Position numbers and translations under genes: made by a program. From the UHGV virus genome UHGV-0136745: DNA of 24,121 bases; one strand, 5' to 3'. Of the stretch, positions 331 to 7,611 are shown one piece after another (the first letter of the stretch is position 1; each line of letters opens with the position of its first letter). Origin of the DNA: a virus. The notes beneath the pieces were generated by a model that was not told the origin of the DNA, made no database searches, and saw only the letters and a list, made by a program, of their open reading frames with translations.

Positions 331-1751
331 TTTTTACCTCTGCGCTTCATATACTCTAGTAATATGTCTTGTACTTGCTTTTTCTCGTCGGTACGAGCCG
401 CAACTACTTCATCCAAGGTATCTTTTGCGATTATATGGTAGATAAATACCGCTCTATTATAGCCCGCTTGTTTTTGACGGGTTGGACCTATGCGCTCAAC
501 AACCTGCAAATAGTGCTCAAGGTTCCAGCCTTGCGAAATAAACGCCAGATGATGTCCGCCGTCCTGTAAATTTAAACCGTGCCCGGCTGACGCCGGATGC
601 ACACACAAAATCTCGATTTCACCTCTGTTCCACGCTTCCATCTGCTTGTTACCCTTAGCACCTTTGGCAAACGCCTGCGCCTGCGGAAAACGTTTCAGGA
701 TGCGCTCCAGTTCGTGTTTAAACTGATAGGCCACCAGTAACGGCGCGCCCTGTAACTCCTCAACAATGGACTCCAGCGCATCCAGTTTCGTATCGTGTAC
801 TTTCTCCCAGTCTTTCGTTGCCTCGCCGTCCGGCCCTGATACATACACGGCACCGGATGCAATCTGCAAACACTTCGACGTCTTCGCCGCTGCGTTAGCC
901 GCCTCAACTTCTCCGCTCTCCAGTTCCGCAAATAACTTTTCCTCCATATCGATGTACGCCTGACGCGCTTTCTTCGGCAGGTCGATTTCAACCGGTACGA
1001 TAATGGGCGCCTCGCATCCAAACCACTCGGCGGGGTCGATGGTTAGACTGATGTCTTTCATCTTCTGATGAATTTCATTATCCGCACCCGGGCGCGCGTG
1101 ATACTCCCGTGCCATAGCGGATTTACCCTTCTGTACCGAATTAAACCAGCGGTCGGTGAACGCGGTGTATGAAGAGCCAAGACGCTCGCCGCCGTCTATA
1201 AACCAGTTCTGGCCCCAAAGGTCTTTGAGGCCGTTAGGCGATGGTGTACCGGTCAGATTAATGAAGCGCTTAACCTTCCCGAATGCTACCTTACTGAGCG
1301 CCTTTGCCCGCTTACTGCCACCAGAACGGCTACGGAAAGATTTCAGCTTCGTGCTCTCATCAGCGACGATAACCGTGAAAGGCCAGTCGTCTTTGCCATA
1401 GTAGTCAATCAGCCACTCGATAACTTCGTAGTTAGTGCACACCACATTAGCGTCGGACTCCAGCGCCGCGATGCGGCGCTTCTCTGAACCGGTTGCGTCT
1501 ACTACACGTAGCGTAGGGAAATTCCACTTCTCCTGTTCCGCGGGCCACGTACCTGACGCAACACGTAACGGGGCAAGGATTAACACGCGGTCGTCGTCCG
1601 TAAGTTGCCCATTACGGAACAGCCTGTTAAGGACCCACATAGTAGAGGAGGTTTTACCCCCTCCCATACCACACCAGATATTACAACGTGGGTGCTGTAG
1701 CATGAACGAAGTCATGAGCTTTTGGTATTCGCGCCTTTGGAATTTAGACAT
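327..1751 (-). CDS. Superfamily 2 DNA helicase (DEAD/DEAH-box, SNF2-like)
   Basis: ORF 327..1784; Walker A GMGGGKTSS, motif II DESTKLKS, ILAPLRVASGTW and LTGTPSPNGLKDLW typical of SNF2-type helicases. Start placed at internal ATG 1751 (MSKFQRREYQ), which has a GAGG SD and sits 5 nt from the upstream gene stop; 1784 is the alternative. Confidence 0.8.
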   Translation of the reverse strand: MSKFQRREYQKLMTSFMLQHPRCNIWCGMGGGKTSSTMWVLNRLFRNGQLTDDDRVLILAPLRVASGTWPAEQEKWNFPTLRVVDATGSEKRRIAALESDANVVCTNYEVIEWLIDYYGKDDWPFTVIVADESTKLKSFRSRSGGSKRAKALSKVAFGKVKRFINLTGTPSPNGLKDLWGQNWFIDGGERLGSSYTAFTDRWFNSVQKGKSAMAREYHARPGADNEIHQKMKDISLTIDPAEWFGCEAPIIVPVEIDLPKKARQAYIDMEEKLFAELESGEVEAANAAAKTSKCLQIASGAVYVSGPDGEATKDWEKVHDTKLDALESIVEELQGAPLLVAYQFKHELERILKRFPQAQAFAKGAKGNKQMEAWNRGEIEILCVHPASAGHGLNLQDGGHHLAFISQGWNLEHYLQVVERIGPTRQKQAGYNRAVFIYHIIAKDTLDEVVAARTDEKKQVQDILLEYMKRRGKK

Positions 1752-2427
1752 GGTTAGCCTCGTAAACTGCTTTTGCGAAACCACGCGGAGTTAACGAGCG
1801 GATTACCTTAGTGCGCGCGCTCTTGCCCCCCAACTTCTTGTGCTGGTCAGAATACCCAGCACCAACGGCAACGGGCTTAACCTCCGGCATAACGAAGCCG
1901 TTGCCAACCCACAGACACGTCTTTTTAGGATACGCATCTCGCGGCTTTATGTACTCGGGGAAGGTCGGGTGTGTATCATCCTCTGGCAAGTAGCCGCCGT
2001 ATTCGAACGGGTCAAACGTATAATCTGGCTTACGCCACATAGAGGAAAGCACGCTAACCGGATTCTCAATCATATACGGCACGTTGTATTTCTTCGCCAG
2101 ACGAGCCGCTACTTTACATGTGATAACTGCTTCAACCTGAAACGTTGCATTCTTTTTACGCTTAGCTTCAAAATGCGCAGCCCCGCTTACAGCAAGGTCA
2201 GTACACGGCGGGAACGCGAAAATAATATCTGGCGCTACGTCGAAGTCGAACTTGTTATCAATCCATGCGTTTACATAGTGAATATTCTCGTGCTGAACCT
2301 TAGCGCCGGCAGTGTTGTAGTCGCCGTGGTCGGCATCATCGTAATTGAAACAATAGCAAGTATGGCCTGCTTCCGCCCACGGCTGGACCATAAGGCCCGA
2401 ACCGTCAAACAGTGACCAGATAATCAT
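1744..2427 (-). CDS. DNA (cytosine-5)-methyltransferase-like protein, unusually compact (227 aa)
   Basis: Motif I-like SLFDGSG (FxGxG AdoMet site), motif IV-like FPPCTDLAVSG (catalytic PC), motif VI-like MIENPVS (ENV), C-terminal RSLTPRGFAKAV resembling the R.LTPRE.AR element. Far shorter than typical C5-MTases; no obvious target-recognition domain. ATGA overlap with upstream ORF. Confidence 0.55.
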   Translation of the reverse strand: MIIWSLFDGSGLMVQPWAEAGHTCYCFNYDDADHGDYNTAGAKVQHENIHYVNAWIDNKFDFDVAPDIIFAFPPCTDLAVSGAAHFEAKRKKNATFQVEAVITCKVAARLAKKYNVPYMIENPVSVLSSMWRKPDYTFDPFEYGGYLPEDDTHPTFPEYIKPRDAYPKKTCLWVGNGFVMPEVKPVAVGAGYSDQHKKLGGKSARTKVIRSLTPRGFAKAVYEANHV

Positions 2428-2615
2428 TTCAGCACCAGCACCAGTTCTTTACGCCCGAACGCCGTAACGTTACCTGTTACGTCCTCGATAACCAGTTTAC
2501 CGTTCGACTCGACGAACACCGTATCAACGGCGACAGGCTGGCGCGTCTTAACGTTGAAAATCATGTCACCTGGTACGATGTCACGTGCGGGTTTGCGGTC
2601 ATATTCGTGTTTCAT
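2424..2615 (-). CDS. hypothetical protein (63 aa)
   Basis: ORF in operon orientation; stop overlaps start of the MTase-like gene (ATGA). No recognisable motif. Confidence 0.45.
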   Translation of the reverse strand: MKHEYDRKPARDIVPGDMIFNVKTRQPVAVDTVFVESNGKLVIEDVTGNVTAFGRKELVLVLK

Positions 2616-2645
2616 TTCTCAATTCCTTATATTGTTGGTGTATGA

Positions 2646-3038
2646 CTAACTATAATAGTTTGCTATTAGGTCGTCAACCTGTTTGAACGAGCCAACGACA
2701 AAAACATTTGCGCCACGTTTACGCATCCGCTCATGTTCCCGTAGCTGGTGAGGGTCTGGCTTCGTGTTTTCGTCTTTCTTTACCTCGACGAACCAGATGA
2801 TGCCGTCGGGGAGAATTACCAGCAGGTCGGGGGCGCCTATTCTATTTTCGTACGACAACTTACGAACGAGGCCCCCGATGGCCTCGAATCGCTCTTTTGC
2901 GTATTTCTGAATCTTGCCTTCCGGGGTCATTAACCGATTATCCTGCTGAAAATAGCCGCGCCCAGTAATAAAGCTACAAGTACAGCGATTATAGTTATCA
3001 TAATACGCACCCCTCGCGTTTAGTATGTTCAATCCCAC
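2646..3038 (-). CDS. VRR-NUC domain nuclease (PD-(D/E)XK fold)
   Basis: C-terminal region GAPDLLVILPDGIIWFVEVKKDENTKPDPHQLREHERM matches the VRR-NUC signature (D...E.K plus downstream Q). Start uncertain: GTG at 3038 or internal ATG at 2930 (MTPEGKIQKY). Confidence 0.6.
   Translation of the reverse strand: MGLNILNARGAYYDNYNRCTCSFITGRGYFQQDNRLMTPEGKIQKYAKERFEAIGGLVRKLSYENRIGAPDLLVILPDGIIWFVEVKKDENTKPDPHQLREHERMRKRGANVFVVGSFKQVDDLIANYYS
2649..2677 (-). promoter_or_regulatory. sigma70-like promoter (reverse strand TTGACG-17 nt-TATAGT) with embedded palindrome AATAG-N4-CTATT
   Basis: Reverse complement of 2649..2677 reads TTGACGacctaatagcaaactatTATAGT. Same architecture as the sites at 6152..6180 and 8998..9026. 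Lies inside the last codons of the VRR-NUC gene. Confidence 0.45.
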
Positions 3039-3083
3039 AGCGCGGACAGATTCGGCAGTCTTCTTCGTAGAACCAGTAAATTT

Positions 3084-3215
3084 TCATTCCAGCACCCACA
3101 GATAAATTGCGATTAACATACGCAATACGGCGACCATCATGCCGTACTGGCCCTCGTGACAGTAGACACCGGCGGCGAATCCCGCCAGTGCTGTGACAAT
3201 CAGTTTACTTAGCAT
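3084..3215 (-). CDS. possible small hydrophobic membrane protein (43 aa)
   Basis: Reverse-strand ATG at 3215..3213 gives MLSKLIVTALAGFAAGVYCHEGQYGMMVAVLRMLIAIYLWVLE, stop at 3086..3084. Overlaps the polymerase 3' end by 11 nt. Below ORF-track cutoff. SD weak. Confidence 0.3.
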   Translation of the reverse strand: MLSKLIVTALAGFAAGVYCHEGQYGMMVAVLRMLIAIYLWVLE

Positions 3216-5406
3216 AACGTTTCATCTCCGCGCCTTCTGCGACTAAAGGGAACCCCTCGGCCCACTCAGGCAATGCGCACATTAATTTTTCCAGCTCAGC
3301 CACCGTGTACTCCGGTGTATCCGGGGTTTCGCATACCAGTTCATCGTGCACAGAAAGCACGATAGGATACCCACCACCCTCAACATTAACCATTGCATAC
3401 GCAAGTAAATCACGGCACAGCGCCTGAACAATGTTTTCACAGGCCTTGCCGCCGTGTGTGTACAGGGTGGTCCATTGGCGGGTTAACTGGTTTTCACCCT
3501 GGTATTTGATTCGCACATTTGTGTTTACCCGTCCGTCTTCGTCGGTTTCTTTTGTCACACTAACGCCGATTCCTGGATACGATAGAATCCGAGCCGACGG
3601 CAACTCCATACACAACCACCAACCGGGAACTTTCCTGCCGGACGAATCGGTTTCTACTGTTCTCCAGATTCGGATGGCGCGTTCACCATTCTTGCGCAGA
3701 TGCGCCCCTGCCCAAAACTCACGACCCGGATTTCTTACAGCGGCTAAAATTCCATCTTTAAGGTCGCGCCAGAAAGCTACTGTTTCCGGGTGTGACTCAC
3801 GCCACATACGCTTGATCGCGTCGCATGTACGCCAGACTTTCTTATCAAGAATATATGAAGGTCTGTCATCTTTTTCACCGGGACGCGGGGGGCGCTTGGC
3901 TTCCTGAATACGTGCCCACTCGTAACCCCGTGCCGTAGCGGCCCATATATGGTCAGGGAAAGTCCCGTCCATTGTTTTTGCCATCTCAATAAGGTCAAGA
4001 CCTAGGTTTTTAGCAAACGTAACGAACGCTCCTACGCCCCCCTCATAGCCTAGGCCAAGCTCGCAAGCCTTGCCTATCTGTCTGATTTCCTTGAAGTTTT
4101 TCTTAATGTCATCTGGGTCCATGCCGAACATCTTACCTGCGGTTACACAGTAAATATCCAGTCCGGCGCGGAACGTATCGAGCGCGGTTTCTTCTCCTGC
4201 CAGCCATGCCAACCCGCGGCCTTCGACGTTAGAGTAATCGGCGACGACAAACTTATGTCCTGCTTCCGGGATAATGCAGCTACGAACCGTCGATGCCGTT
4301 AGTTTGGCTACGTCAAAACGGCGATGCGCGCGCCCCTTAAGTAGCGCCGCAATTCCTTTATCCAGTTCATCGTCATGATAGTACCCGCGCGCCAGGTTCT
4401 GTGGCTGGAAGCCTTTACCCGCCCATCGCAGAGTACGTTTCGCCCCGCCGTACTGCAAGCAACCACGGCGGCGGTCGTCAGAAGAACGGCCCAACAGCAG
4501 GGGGTTATATTTCGTAGACGCAGTTGACGCCGCGCCCAGGCGCATTTCTATAATCGTGCGCGCATCGTCCGGTAAATCCTCGTCCGCCAGCAGGTCATGA
4601 AGTGTTGACTTCTGCGCATTGTGAATGCGGTGAGCGGGGGCCAGTTCACGCAGAATCGGCAGGAAGTCTTTGCCGGTTAGCGAGCCGCCGTATTTACGCT
4701 GAGCTTCTTCCTGCAACTGCGCCTTGTGTTTCTCTACGGCTTCAATCGCGGATTCCGCCAGAGCGACATCAACCTTAAACCCACGGTCGTTGATTAACTG
4801 GTCCAGTTCCAGAACCCGGTCCTCGAACTCGGAGTTACCCCAACGCGGCAGCTTGTGGAATACTTCACGCATCGCTGTTATGTCGCTCACGGCGTACTTG
4901 ATGAACAACGCCCACTCGTCCGGGTGCGTTTCGGCAGTGTAGCGACGGATTTTATAGTTCTTCGGCGTAGGTTTAGAGAAACGCTGAATCAGCGCCTTGC
5001 CTCGTTTGTCTTTTGCATTGTCCGCAGATACCCCAAGCACTTCACACAACGCATCGAGTGACCCCGGCAGCGCGTGGCGAAACGCCCAAATCATCGTATC
5101 AATGGTGTTGCTGACCGGAATATCGAAGTCCCAGCAGTGCTTCATGATGAGACGGTCGAACATTGAGCCGTTGTGCCAGACCATCTTGATACGGCTGTTC
5201 GGCTTAACCAGGCGGCGCAGTGCACGGTGCAAATCGCCTGGCATGTCGCTGCCGTCTGTGCAATCCCATACCTGAACAGGTTCATCGTCGAAGGCGTAGG
5301 TGCAGATAAGCACTCCGGTAGTCGGGTGTTCGGCGTAGGCATAGGAGCCGACTTTCTTCAAATCGGCTTCGGAGAAGGTTTCAAAGTCCAAGAACAGGTA
5401 ACTCAT
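3205..5406 (-). CDS. DNA polymerase, family A (Pol I-like) with 3'-5' proofreading exonuclease domain
   Basis: 733 aa. Exo I motif FLDFETFS near N-terminus; polymerase motif A VVADYSNVEGRGLAWLAGE, motif B RQIGKACELGLGYEGG (K...YG), motif C LSVHDELV. Confidence 0.9.
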   Translation of the reverse strand: MSYLFLDFETFSEADLKKVGSYAYAEHPTTGVLICTYAFDDEPVQVWDCTDGSDMPGDLHRALRRLVKPNSRIKMVWHNGSMFDRLIMKHCWDFDIPVSNTIDTMIWAFRHALPGSLDALCEVLGVSADNAKDKRGKALIQRFSKPTPKNYKIRRYTAETHPDEWALFIKYAVSDITAMREVFHKLPRWGNSEFEDRVLELDQLINDRGFKVDVALAESAIEAVEKHKAQLQEEAQRKYGGSLTGKDFLPILRELAPAHRIHNAQKSTLHDLLADEDLPDDARTIIEMRLGAASTASTKYNPLLLGRSSDDRRRGCLQYGGAKRTLRWAGKGFQPQNLARGYYHDDELDKGIAALLKGRAHRRFDVAKLTASTVRSCIIPEAGHKFVVADYSNVEGRGLAWLAGEETALDTFRAGLDIYCVTAGKMFGMDPDDIKKNFKEIRQIGKACELGLGYEGGVGAFVTFAKNLGLDLIEMAKTMDGTFPDHIWAATARGYEWARIQEAKRPPRPGEKDDRPSYILDKKVWRTCDAIKRMWRESHPETVAFWRDLKDGILAAVRNPGREFWAGAHLRKNGERAIRIWRTVETDSSGRKVPGWWLCMELPSARILSYPGIGVSVTKETDEDGRVNTNVRIKYQGENQLTRQWTTLYTHGGKACENIVQALCRDLLAYAMVNVEGGGYPIVLSVHDELVCETPDTPEYTVAELEKLMCALPEWAEGFPLVAEGAEMKRYAK

Positions 5407-5425
5407 TATTTCGACCCTTAGTAAA

Positions 5426-5445
5426 AAGGCCCAATAAAGGGCCTT
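5426..5445 (-). terminator. putative intrinsic terminator/attenuator between SSB-like gene and DNA polymerase
   Basis: Reverse strand RNA forms stem AAGGCCC/GGGCCUU with a 6-nt loop, followed by a U-rich tract (UUUUUAC). Located in the 58-bp gap between two co-directional genes. Confidence 0.4.
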
Positions 5446-5464
5446 AATTAAACATATTCAGATA

Positions 5465-6094
5465 TTAACCACGGCGACGACGTTCGCGGCGCGGTGCTTC
5501 ATCTTCTTCGTCGTCTTCCAGGTCATTGACGCTGGCCGCAACTTTAGAACCACCGAACGCTTTACCCTCGCCGACATATTTAATCGCCAGCAGGTTAACA
5601 CCGAGAACTTTGTACTTCTGGCTAAACCAGACTTCCACGCTTACGTTAGCAACGCAGCCGCTGTAAACCTGTTCACCTTCAATCTGTTCACCTTCGACAT
5701 TGAAGTCTGGCTCTACCTGAGTTTCACCTTTTTTAGAGGTTACAATCAGAGGTTGTTTCTGCGCCTTCGCTTTGAAGTAGAAACCTTCAGGGAAGTCTTC
5801 AAAAGGATTATCACGCTCGGCGATGTCCTTAATAGCACATTTATCCATGTGCTTGCCTTCGCCGTAGTTTGACTTCATCCACTTCTCGGCAGCGGCGGCC
5901 CCCAGTGCTTCTTCTACAACCGCGTAAACGGTGTCGTACATTTCGTCGATTTGCGCATGGTCAGACGGCAGGATGATAGTGGCGCTGTACTGACCTTTAG
6001 TGATAGAGCCATCGTCGTTTTCACGGTCTTTTTCGCGTTCGAATACGTTAACCCATGCAGTGTTTACTTTACGCAGATTTAATTTCAGTCCCAT
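5465..6094 (-). CDS. putative ssDNA-binding protein (DUF2815-like by architecture)
   Basis: 209 aa with acidic C-terminal tail (NDLEDDEEDE) then a basic end. Sits between a Cas4-like nuclease and Pol A, the position usually occupied by DUF2815 SSB proteins next to DUF2800-type nucleases. Assignment rests on context and composition. Confidence 0.45.
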   Translation of the reverse strand: MGLKLNLRKVNTAWVNVFEREKDRENDDGSITKGQYSATIILPSDHAQIDEMYDTVYAVVEEALGAAAAEKWMKSNYGEGKHMDKCAIKDIAERDNPFEDFPEGFYFKAKAQKQPLIVTSKKGETQVEPDFNVEGEQIEGEQVYSGCVANVSVEVWFSQKYKVLGVNLLAIKYVGEGKAFGGSKVAASVNDLEDDEEDEAPRRERRRRG

Positions 6095-6151
6095 TTGATT
6101 TCTCGCTTTTAAGTTTCGTTTACTCCGGGAGCTGCCCGGCCAGTGATTAGA

Positions 6152-6180
6152 ACTATAATAGCTAACTATTCAGTAGTCAA
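6152..6180 (-). promoter_or_regulatory. sigma70-like promoter (reverse strand TTGACT-17 nt-TATAGT) with embedded palindrome AATAG-N4-CTATT
   Basis: Reverse complement reads TTGACTactgaatagttagctatTATAGT. A CCGGG/CCCGG hairpin lies in the predicted 5' UTR (6126..6140) ahead of the SSB-like gene. Confidence 0.5.
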
Positions 6181-6184
6181 CACT

Positions 6185-6367
6185 TTATTCTAAATCTTCT
6201 TTCTTACACATCTCTAAAAAGGCTTTGTACGAGGTTATTCTAAATACCCGGTCAACAGCCTTAGACTTGCTTCTGTGAAGAACATGCACTAGTCCTCTTT
6301 TCTTTCGGGCCATAAACTCATCTAAATACGCCCGGCGCAATTGCTCAACTGTACTTGATTTACTCAT
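6185..6367 (-). CDS. hypothetical small basic protein (60 aa)
   Basis: ORF 6185..6397; start placed at internal ATG 6367 (MSKSSTVEQLRRAY), which overlaps the nuclease stop as ATGA. Confidence 0.45.
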   Translation of the reverse strand: MSKSSTVEQLRRAYLDEFMARKKRGLVHVLHRSKSKAVDRVFRITSYKAFLEMCKKEDLE

Positions 6368-7611
6368 TCTAAATCCTCCTCTGTTACCTGATTCCACTCA
6401 GGCCGTTTGTCGTCTGCCGTTGCTACGCACGGTGCACCTGGCTTACGTGTGATGAAGTCTTTCAGTTCTTCTTCCGGTATAACCTTAACCGCTTCGCTCG
6501 GCGTCATGAGAACAACTTTGTTTAGCATAGTGCCGTATGCCTCAGCCACCTTGTCAGCGTCTTTCCACGCACGATTACCCGGACGACCTTCTACCAGCTT
6601 GTAACCCGGCACTTTCTTACCGGAATGCAACGCGGCAGCCATAGCTTTCTCAACCTTGTCGATGTGCTGGCGCAACAACGGCAACTTCTCATACTCAGCG
6701 ACGAGTTGCTCAAGTGTCAATTCCAGCGCGAAGTCGTCCTCCAGTTCTTCTGCCAGTACCGAATTAACCGTCTTCGTTCTGGCGGCACACTGTTCTGAGA
6801 ACCTACACCACTGGCAACCGTCCGCCGACGGCTTGAAGTCCGACGCTTTCAGGTTCTTCTTACCGCGGAAGTACGCATCGAGTGCTAACAGCGCGCGTTT
6901 CTGTGCGAACTTAGCGAACAGTTCAAGACCTTCAACCGAGATATCCCACTCCGACGCACCACCGGCATACGGCTGGAATATGACCAGACGAACAGTTGTT
7001 ATGTTATAACGTCTCTTGAGTCGGCGATAAACACCGAGAGCATAGAGCATAAGCTGCTTGTTTTCTTTCGCTTCTACACGATGCCGTCCTGTTTTCAGGT
7101 CGCCGATAATGAGCATGTGTTCGTCAGTGTTCGCCAGTTCCTGAACGGCAACGAGGTCTGCAGTTCCGAATGTCTCAACGCCTTCGTATCCCGGATGCAG
7201 TACCTCAGTAAGATTGACGCGCATTTCAAGCTTGGCGTAAGTCGCTACGTCGATAATAGCTTTGCAGTAGTCGGTATACTTTCGCACCTGCTCAATCATG
7301 TCCGCTGTAATCAGTACCGCGCCTTCCATCGGGCTGATTAGCGCCTTAATCTGGCCTTTACCTTCATCCAGCACGTAAGCGCCGACTTCGCGTTCTAACG
7401 GCAGCGCAGTGCCCCGGATATAGGCGTTTAGGTGCACTTCTGCTATTGTATGACATGCGGTCCCCGTAACGGCAGCTTTACCGGATGTGTTCGGGATGTC
7501 TTTTTCACAGGCCAGTGATGCGGCACAGGTAAGCCACTTTTTAGCACCTGATGGCGACAGTAAGGCGTGCACATCGTTATTGCCGCCGCGTTCTTTTAGC
7601 TTCATGCTCAT
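6364..7611 (-). CDS. Cas4/RecB-family PD-(D/E)XK exonuclease with Cys cluster (DUF2800-like)
   Basis: Motifs ADLVAV...IIGDLKTG (D / D.K nuclease core) and C-terminal CQWCRFSEQC plus N-terminal Cys, consistent with a 4Fe-4S Cas4-like nuclease. Start at 7611 (ATGA overlap with upstream 50-aa ORF) or 7626. Confidence 0.8.
   Translation of the reverse strand: MSMKLKERGGNNDVHALLSPSGAKKWLTCAASLACEKDIPNTSGKAAVTGTACHTIAEVHLNAYIRGTALPLEREVGAYVLDEGKGQIKALISPMEGAVLITADMIEQVRKYTDYCKAIIDVATYAKLEMRVNLTEVLHPGYEGVETFGTADLVAVQELANTDEHMLIIGDLKTGRHRVEAKENKQLMLYALGVYRRLKRRYNITTVRLVIFQPYAGGASEWDISVEGLELFAKFAQKRALLALDAYFRGKKNLKASDFKPSADGCQWCRFSEQCAARTKTVNSVLAEELEDDFALELTLEQLVAEYEKLPLLRQHIDKVEKAMAAALHSGKKVPGYKLVEGRPGNRAWKDADKVAEAYGTMLNKVVLMTPSEAVKVIPEEELKDFITRKPGAPCVATADDKRPEWNQVTEEDLE

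Follow-up and report, generated by a model that had tools for sequence, protein, structure and literature searches.

The gene described here lies in the viral genome UHGV-0136745, of which a stretch of 24,121 nt (the window) was analysed. At positions 1744–2427 of the window, on the minus strand like every other window feature located below, an open reading frame (ORF) with an ATG start encodes a 227-aa protein that resembles a minimal cytosine-C5 methyltransferase (C5-MTase) and belongs to the PHROG 757 family. A first-pass annotation had described it as an unusually compact C5-MTase-like protein, and both the ORF and all the motif strings cited for it were recovered: LFDGSG (residues 6–11), FPPCTDLAVSG (72–82), MIENPVS (119–125), GNG (175–177) and RSLTPR (210–215). 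The protein matches the phrog_757 profile "DNA methyltransferase" with an E-value of 1.8e-89 (residues 1–226 correspond to profile positions 15–219 of 247), 7,497 homologues were found in a set of 5.8 billion proteins, and the ratio of nonsynonymous to synonymous substitution rates (dN/dS) is 0.03–0.10 in comparisons with nine relatives. Thus, the ORF lies far beyond chance, and it is a genuine gene under purifying selection. A methylase-like label for the family is already present in databases and is not new; the label, "Dcm / C5 methylase", is founded on weak similarity alone. Our analysis makes it moderately probable that the gene encodes an orphan DNA cytosine-C5 methylase dependent on S-adenosylmethionine (AdoMet), which consists of the catalytic core only, has a short or relaxed target and is carried as an exchangeable anti-restriction cassette.

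Fold and relationship to known C5-methyltransferases

The AlphaFold2 model of the window protein (predicted local distance difference test, pLDDT, 87; predicted template modelling score, pTM, 0.87) has the three-dimensional fold of C5-MTases, and its top Foldseek matches are the catalytic domains of DNMT3A and DNMT3B, with E-values down to 9e-8. An NCBIfam scan of the protein gave zero matches, and searches of PDB sequences with single and profile queries gave nothing significant. In profile-to-profile comparison by hhalign, the family was aligned with a reference profile built from M.HhaI, M.HaeIII, DNMT3A and SpCmoX (CmoX; PDB 8YF3), a phage DNA cytosine C5-carboxymethyltransferase. The DNMT3A and M.HhaI sequences used are identical to the PDB chains, the M.HaeIII sequence equals 3ubt_Y apart from the engineered C71S of that entry, and CmoX was taken from the genome of phage S-B43. 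The alignment (Prob 95.9%, E 5.8e-9) spans residues 1–129 and pairs Phe7, Cys75 and Glu121 with Phe18, Cys81 and Glu119 of HhaI, respectively. When single DNMT3A or CmoX sequences were used, only motifs I–IV aligned, and the C-terminal half of the family alone gave an E-value of 0.56, which is not significant. The DNA enzymes outscore Dnmt2. The predicted structure and the alignments show a C5-methylase fold with conserved catalytic residues; with Pfam PF00145, the score stays below the threshold (see Discussion).

The likeness to DNMT3A and DNMT3B is striking in the local motifs, as seen in the pairs (DNMT3A first) "SLFDG..TG" and SLFDGSG, "SPCNDLS" and PPCTDLA, "YFWGN" and CLWVGN, and "GRSWSVP" and IRSLTPR. 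Moreover, DNMT3 has the smallest recognition domain of the characterised enzymes. Unlike the window protein, however, DNMT3 retains the motif VIII arginines (R790 and R792), motif IX and ~90 residues between motifs VIII and X, and it forms a tetramer with regulatory domains; the identity is only 12–17%. Motifs I, IV and VI of M.HhaI and M.HaeIII align with those of the window protein, and the alignment pairs the catalytic Cys and Glu of both sides, but these enzymes of 327–330 aa possess a recognition domain of ~100 residues, motif IX, a Q-x-R-x-R motif VIII and a G-N motif X, and they are parts of restriction-modification pairs. CmoX, like the window protein, has a PPC motif, and its Arg at the motif X Asn may have a counterpart in R210, which lies at or next to that position; but the 372 aa of CmoX include motif IX, the arginines of motif VIII and a complete recognition domain.

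Conserved, reduced and missing motifs

An exhaustive search gave 1,291 cluster representatives at E≤1e-3, and conservation was counted in 81–102 diverse relatives. Most of the representatives are 200–260 aa long; hence the short length is typical of the family and does not reflect a truncated gene. Over about 100 diverse members, Cys75, Gly82, Glu121, Pro123, Pro140, Tyr166, Trp173 and Pro181 are essentially invariant, and at least about 90% of the members keep Asp28 (Asn in the subfamily of the window), Phe72, Pro73, Lys89, Asn122, Arg132, Lys168, Thr170, Arg210, Ser211 and Pro214.

In the N-terminal part, motif I (residues 6–11, LFDGSG; 2395–2412) is the putative AdoMet loop and includes Phe7. 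It is followed by strand beta2 (2344–2361), which ends in Asn28 at the motif II position, where 95 of the 102 relatives have Asp and the window subfamily has Asn. Motif IV (residues 72–82, FPPCTDLAVSG; 2182–2214) contains the nucleophile Cys75; the PPC, with the Pro-Cys recognised in the first-pass annotation, is found in 101/102 relatives. Motif VI (residues 119–125, MIENPVS; 2053–2073) supplies the general acid Glu121, and the Glu-Asn-Pro is present in all 102.

The middle of the protein contains a lineage-specific insert (residues 147–163, LPEDDTHPTFPEYIKPR; 1939–1989), missing from the members in Arthrobacter phages, a Burkholderia prophage and other distant members. It is followed by the strand equivalent to motif VIII (residues 164–177, DAYPKKTCLWVGNG; 1897–1938), in which Y166, K168, T170 and W173 are near-invariant. 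The GNG at the end of this strand had been taken as a sign of permuted motif order, with the R-x-L-T-P-R element appearing after it rather than before. We considered GNG as motif X and rejected it: Asn176 is kept in only 42/102 diverse relatives, and GNG is the weakly conserved tail of the motif VIII strand, comparable with DNMT3A "RARYFWGN". Since GNG is not motif X, the supposed anomaly of motif order does not exist.

In place of a recognition domain there is a short linker (residues 178–205; 1813–1896), which includes a hypervariable loop (181–197) and a semi-conserved LGGK. Altogether ~34 residues (176–209) separate the motif VIII strand from the lone C-terminal element, whereas HhaI has ~100 residues from motif VIII to motif IX alone and DNMT3A ~90 from VIII to X. 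The first-pass claim that there is no room for a conventional target-recognition domain therefore stands, and in an active enzyme the target would have to be short or relaxed. In relatives that share at least 60% identity with the window protein, the most variable parts are the surface loops after beta2 and beta3 and the loop 181–197. The last (1837–1887) is hypervariable among homologues that are otherwise 80–90% identical and occurs as two alleles; in relatives at least 80% identical elsewhere these are "GYSDQHKK", present in the window, and "GDNPGWAK". The loop sits within the 34-residue linker, exactly at the place expected for a recognition domain, and is a candidate for a specificity determinant or for a recombination patch.

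The C-terminal conserved element (residues 206–225, TKVIRSLTPRGFAKAVYEAN; 1753–1812) keeps R210 in 97/102 and S211 in 88/102 relatives. Its letters (TK-IRSLTPRGFA-AV, with R-x-L-T-P-R) recall motif IX, but it forms the terminal loop-helix and resembles motif X of DNMT3A ("GRSWSVP") and of CmoX ("GRMVPP"). Profile tests with short blocks gave 10.6 for motif X and 5.4 for motif IX, with a register uncertain by one residue; depending on the register, either R210 or S211 is the counterpart of HhaI Asn304, and hhalign pairs S211. From these comparisons the element is probably the equivalent of motif X.

An arginine near this position leads to an alternative that we hold to be very improbable, namely that the protein uses carboxy-S-adenosylmethionine (Cx-SAM), the product of the host CmoA, to write 5-carboxymethylcytosine (5cxmC, with a carboxymethyl group on cytosine C5), as CmoX does, without a phage cmoA. 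Enterobacterial hosts make Cx-SAM for tRNA. R210 lies at, or one residue off, the position of the motif X Asn, and in SpCmoX, which also has the PPC motif, Arg350 replaces the residue equivalent to HhaI Asn304 and binds the carboxymethyl group (PMC12783734). An N-to-K change at that position makes M.MpeI and M.MedI carboxymethyltransferases, an effect enhanced by an E-to-D change in motif II (PMC12015181), and a short motif II side chain is what the family has as well, Asp in nearly all members and Asn in the window protein. The SPPC of CmoX and the FPPC of the window protein share the PPC, with Phe in place of Ser in 92/102 relatives. The same arginine position, however, is occupied by Arg (R891) in DNMT3A/B, the best structural match, which nevertheless uses AdoMet, and the one-residue uncertainty, with hhalign placing S211 and not R210 on Asn304, loosens the correspondence to CmoX. 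The R-S dipeptide is also kept in the members from Arthrobacter phages, and the hosts of these phages are not known to make Cx-SAM. Moreover, the CmoX gene adjoins cmoA and an amide ligase gene, and 4,257 cmoA genes accompany 5,615 CmoX candidates (PMC12783734), but the window and the complete genome of phage Jersey lack both cmoA and the amide ligase gene. If the use of Cx-SAM were true, the protein would be a minimal alkyl-transferase writing 5-carboxymethylcytosine in coliphage and Salmonella-phage DNA.

A methylase hot spot between two genes of the replication module

The closest DNA matches of the window are Kagunavirus BCH953P1 (87.5%), Raoultella phage RP180 and Salmonella phage FSL SP-101, and the window is from a Guernseyvirinae siphophage of the Jersey/Kagunavirus type. 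Along the minus strand, the replication module consists of genes for a replicative primase-helicase, an exonuclease, a Gp2.5-like single-stranded DNA-binding protein and a DNA polymerase, followed by a VRR-NUC resolvase, a 63-aa protein, the methylase-like gene and an SNF2 helicase. The 63-aa gene (2424–2615; phrog_4879) is restricted to Guernseyvirinae, where it occurs in 448 records at 90% identity or more. Its stop codon (TGA, 2426–2424) and the start codon of the methylase-like gene (ATG, 2427–2425) form an ATGA overlap (2424–2427). At the other end, the sequence gives an 8-nt overlap (1744–1751) between the methylase stop codon (TAA, 1746–1744) and an ATG at 1751 of the gene that profile matches identify as an SNF2-type DNA helicase (327–1751). 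The Jersey annotation has an identical 8-nt overlap of methylase and helicase. The helicase ORF as called mechanically begins at a GTG at 1784 (327–1784, 485 aa), while the ATG at 1751 gives 474 aa; the latter agrees with how Jersey is annotated and is more likely to be the true start.

In many Guernseyvirinae, e.g. ZCSE9 (locus 2501–4113), the methylase is absent, and the end of the 63-aa gene overlaps the start of the helicase. Full-length DNA matches to the methylase gene of the window occur in ~86 records, whereas roughly two thirds of the about 448 records have the junction without a methylase. In at least 54 further records (among them K1G, K1ind1, NTEC3 and the BASEL phage Bas74, locus 2501–4900) the same slot holds an unrelated 264-aa C5-methylase of phrog_363. 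The junction of the 63-aa gene and the SNF2 helicase gene is thus a hot spot for methylase genes that exists in at least three states and in which the window gene is an optional cassette. Compared with the closest relatives, nucleotide identity is 77–80% for the methylase gene (with dS saturated), 89–92% for the 63-aa gene and 81–85% for the helicase gene; the greater divergence of the methylase than of its flanks suggests independent cassette exchange.

The methylase of PHROG 363, annotated in K1G as a "C-specific methylase", resembles the window protein in its slot, its short length, the missing motif IX and a small recognition region. It is, however, unrelated to it in sequence (BLASTP E 0.077) and, unlike it, scores 59 bits with PF00145 and has a canonical F-x-G-x-G-G, motif IV, H-K-R-N-R and G-N-A-I-V-P. 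Hence, a gene of the window type and a canonical C5-methylase gene interchange at one and the same site. A C5-methylase gene of a Kagunavirus has been found to be co-transcribed with the DNA polymerase gene, although the cassette of that phage may be of either type (PMC12645636).

The first-pass annotation had also called the gene translationally coupled to both neighbours. The overlaps of 4 and 8 nt are real, but the coupling to the 63-aa gene has no evident functional meaning, since that gene abuts the helicase in phages devoid of the methylase. On the same grounds, together with its confinement to Guernseyvirinae, the 63-aa protein was rejected as a recognition partner. A functional coupling to the SNF2 helicase was likewise unsupported, as most of the 80 examined loci have no such helicase at a distance of up to 5 kb. 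It adjoins the methylase only in replication modules of Guernseyvirinae and of the Dhillonvirus type, and there on opposite sides, which implies independent insertions: the window methylase is upstream of the helicase, and in Dhillonvirus-like loci (about 3580–5690) the order is polymerase, VRR-NUC, helicase, methylase.

The behaviour as a cassette also bears on the proposal, made in the first-pass annotation, that a C5-MTase fold might here act on free nucleotides or in the first step of a multi-step hypermodification. A small protein without a recognition domain would suit such a role, and C5-MTases do start hypermodification in other phage families (PMC8256090, PMC12783734). But neither the window nor the complete Jersey genome contains a gene for a dioxygenase, glycosyltransferase, ligase, kinase, dCTPase or CmoA, and the methylase-like gene is optional among otherwise near-identical phages. 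We regard the probability of this role as close to negligible.

Upstream in the same module, the VRR-NUC resolvase ORF (2646–3038) encodes 130 aa from a GTG start, and only residues ~34–129 match endonuclease or resolvase profiles (phrog_93 over residues 34–129, phrog_5702 over residues 68–129). At this position the Jersey annotation has a 95-aa protein and a separate small upstream ORF, and the start codon in the window is uncertain.

Distribution beyond Guernseyvirinae

About 3% of phage records (1,525 of 50,697) contain a member of the family. Carriers include Dhillonvirus, Drexlerviridae, large myoviruses of E. coli and Salmonella (about 135–170 kb), and phages of Vibrio, Rhizobium, Azospirillum, Roseobacter and Arthrobacter. 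In Shfl1 (Drexlerviridae) the member lies amid small early genes. In Arthrobacter phage Coral (locus 2586–4636) and in a Burkholderia cenocepacia prophage (5845–7183) it follows an amino-type DNA methylase (PF01555 or phrog_954), and this pair lies in a recombination and replication module with RecT and RecE. In bacterial genomes, sampled one per species, a scan with the alignment of closer relatives gave only 8 loci; the Burkholderia locus, where neighbours were examined, belongs to a prophage, and short fragments account for two of the rest.

The family is also carried by 269 plasmid records. E. coli plasmids of ~90 kb that resemble phage-plasmids have a 216-aa member beside rdgC (locus 5004–5654), similar matches of about 197 aa occur on plasmids of Acinetobacter and Agrobacterium, and the P. 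aeruginosa plasmid pF092021-1 (locus 3890–4945) carries a 351-aa member whose N- and C-terminal extensions have no Pfam match. Among predicted structures of viral proteins there is, in addition, a 1,397-aa fusion of the family to a helicase (A0A6J5SE15).

These neighbourhoods concern the nature of the substrate. The minimal architecture leaves little surface for reading double-stranded DNA, and the substrate might be not phage DNA but RNA (e.g. a cytosine in tRNA, the target of Dnmt2) or a nucleic acid of the host. We consider this very improbable, for Dnmt2 scores below the DNA enzymes, the slot is interchangeable with that of a canonical DNA C5-MTase, and DNA amino-methylases are the neighbours elsewhere.

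Discussion

With DNA as substrate and AdoMet as cofactor, both of which we infer, the protein would work as follows. Motif I, the Asn/Asp of motif II and the R-S of the C-terminal element would bind AdoMet. A cytosine would be flipped out of the DNA, Cys75 would attack C6, Glu121 would activate the ring, and the methyl group would be placed on C5. The target would probably be read by the hypervariable loop 181–197, the catalytic loop and the 147–163 insert, perhaps in an oligomer as in DNMT3. Expressed together with the replication genes, such an enzyme could mark freshly replicated phage DNA and so guard it from some of the restriction enzymes of the host; protection from restriction is a plausible benefit for the phage.

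Several observations weigh against a methylase of this kind. PF00145 gives the window protein 18.8 bits, against a cut-off of 22 bits, and covers residues 3–102 only; no more than 3 of 81 diverse relatives reach E<0.01. In motif I, the window has FDGSG, but most relatives have Tyr, Arg, Phe or His instead of the first Gly (Gly9). Motif VIII reads Y166-P-K168-K-T170 (Y-x-K-x-T in the family), without the arginines of Q-x-R-x-R. In the best register, W173 corresponds to DNMT3A W795 and HhaI M168 and Thr170 falls on HhaI R165 and DNMT3A R792, in a correspondence made at the sequence level and not by three-dimensional superposition; Thr170 thus most likely occupies the position of the Arg that binds cytosine O2. 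The protein lacks a recognition domain together with one of motifs IX and X. Phage C5-MTases whose motifs VIII–X are disrupted had weak activity or none upon expression in E. coli (PMC8256090). In the BASEL collection, Dhillonvirus and Drexlerviridae, which commonly carry the family, and Kagunavirus were found to be highly sensitive to restriction, and methylase genes showed no link to resistance (PMC8594841; PMC11990801). This argues against efficient non-specific methylation, although only six systems were tested there. Finally, we found no experimental, biochemical or methylome characterisation of any family member in the searchable literature.

Two observations on BASEL phages were considered and set aside. 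Bas74, the one Kagunavirus isolate checked, cannot serve as a natural test of the family, because its slot holds the phrog_363 methylase. Similarly, the restriction of BASEL Kagunavirus isolates by K-12 cryptic prophages was examined as a possible attack of McrA on 5-methylcytosine (5mC) and rejected, as the host was already deleted for McrA; the authors trace the effect to O-antigen glycosylation.

The missing elements could also mean that the protein is inefficient on its own, either as a weak or inactive relic retained for binding AdoMet or DNA, or as a catalytic subunit in need of a partner that supplies recognition or motif IX. Split enzymes of the latter type exist: in M.AquI and M.EcoHK31I the catalytic polypeptide, as here, is without part of the C-terminal motifs, and a separate second polypeptide is needed to supply the missing motif. 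The absence of a recognition domain, of one of motifs IX and X and of the motif VIII arginines, the low or absent activity in E. coli of phage enzymes with such defects (PMC8256090), the lack of restriction resistance in carrier groups, and the fused forms with extra domains (the 351-aa plasmid protein of Pseudomonas and the 1,397-aa helicase fusion) all fit this explanation. However, the nucleophile Cys, the Glu of the ENV motif and the cofactor positions are near-invariant over deep divergence, and with a dN/dS below 0.1 this argues for retained catalysis. Unlike in M.AquI and M.EcoHK31I, moreover, no co-distributed partner of the family was found when neighbouring genes were compared: the 63-aa gene is lineage-specific and occurs without the methylase, and the helicase adjoins in only two related replication modules, on different sides. 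We therefore regard an enzyme inefficient alone as unlikely, though less remote than the other alternatives, and retain the orphan DNA C5-methylase as the preferred explanation.

Beyond the label, what seems to be undescribed is the combination of features: a distinct lineage of C5-methylases below the profile threshold, with no recognition domain, a single C-terminal motif and an arginine-free motif VIII, which alternates with one other cassette in a hot spot for methylases. If the proteins are inactive or use another cofactor, thousands of database annotations would be misleading. If they are active, they would represent the smallest natural DNA C5-methyltransferase core, of about 200–230 aa and without a recognition domain, and hence a natural experiment in the minimal protein required for choosing and flipping a cytosine, and they might supply epigenetic tools with enzymes of short motif or relaxed specificity. 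The carriers include widely used groups of E. coli, Klebsiella and Salmonella phages and also candidates for therapy. In an active form, the cassette would be a variable to weigh wherever phage DNA is exposed to restriction or to type IV defences, which depend on 5mC.

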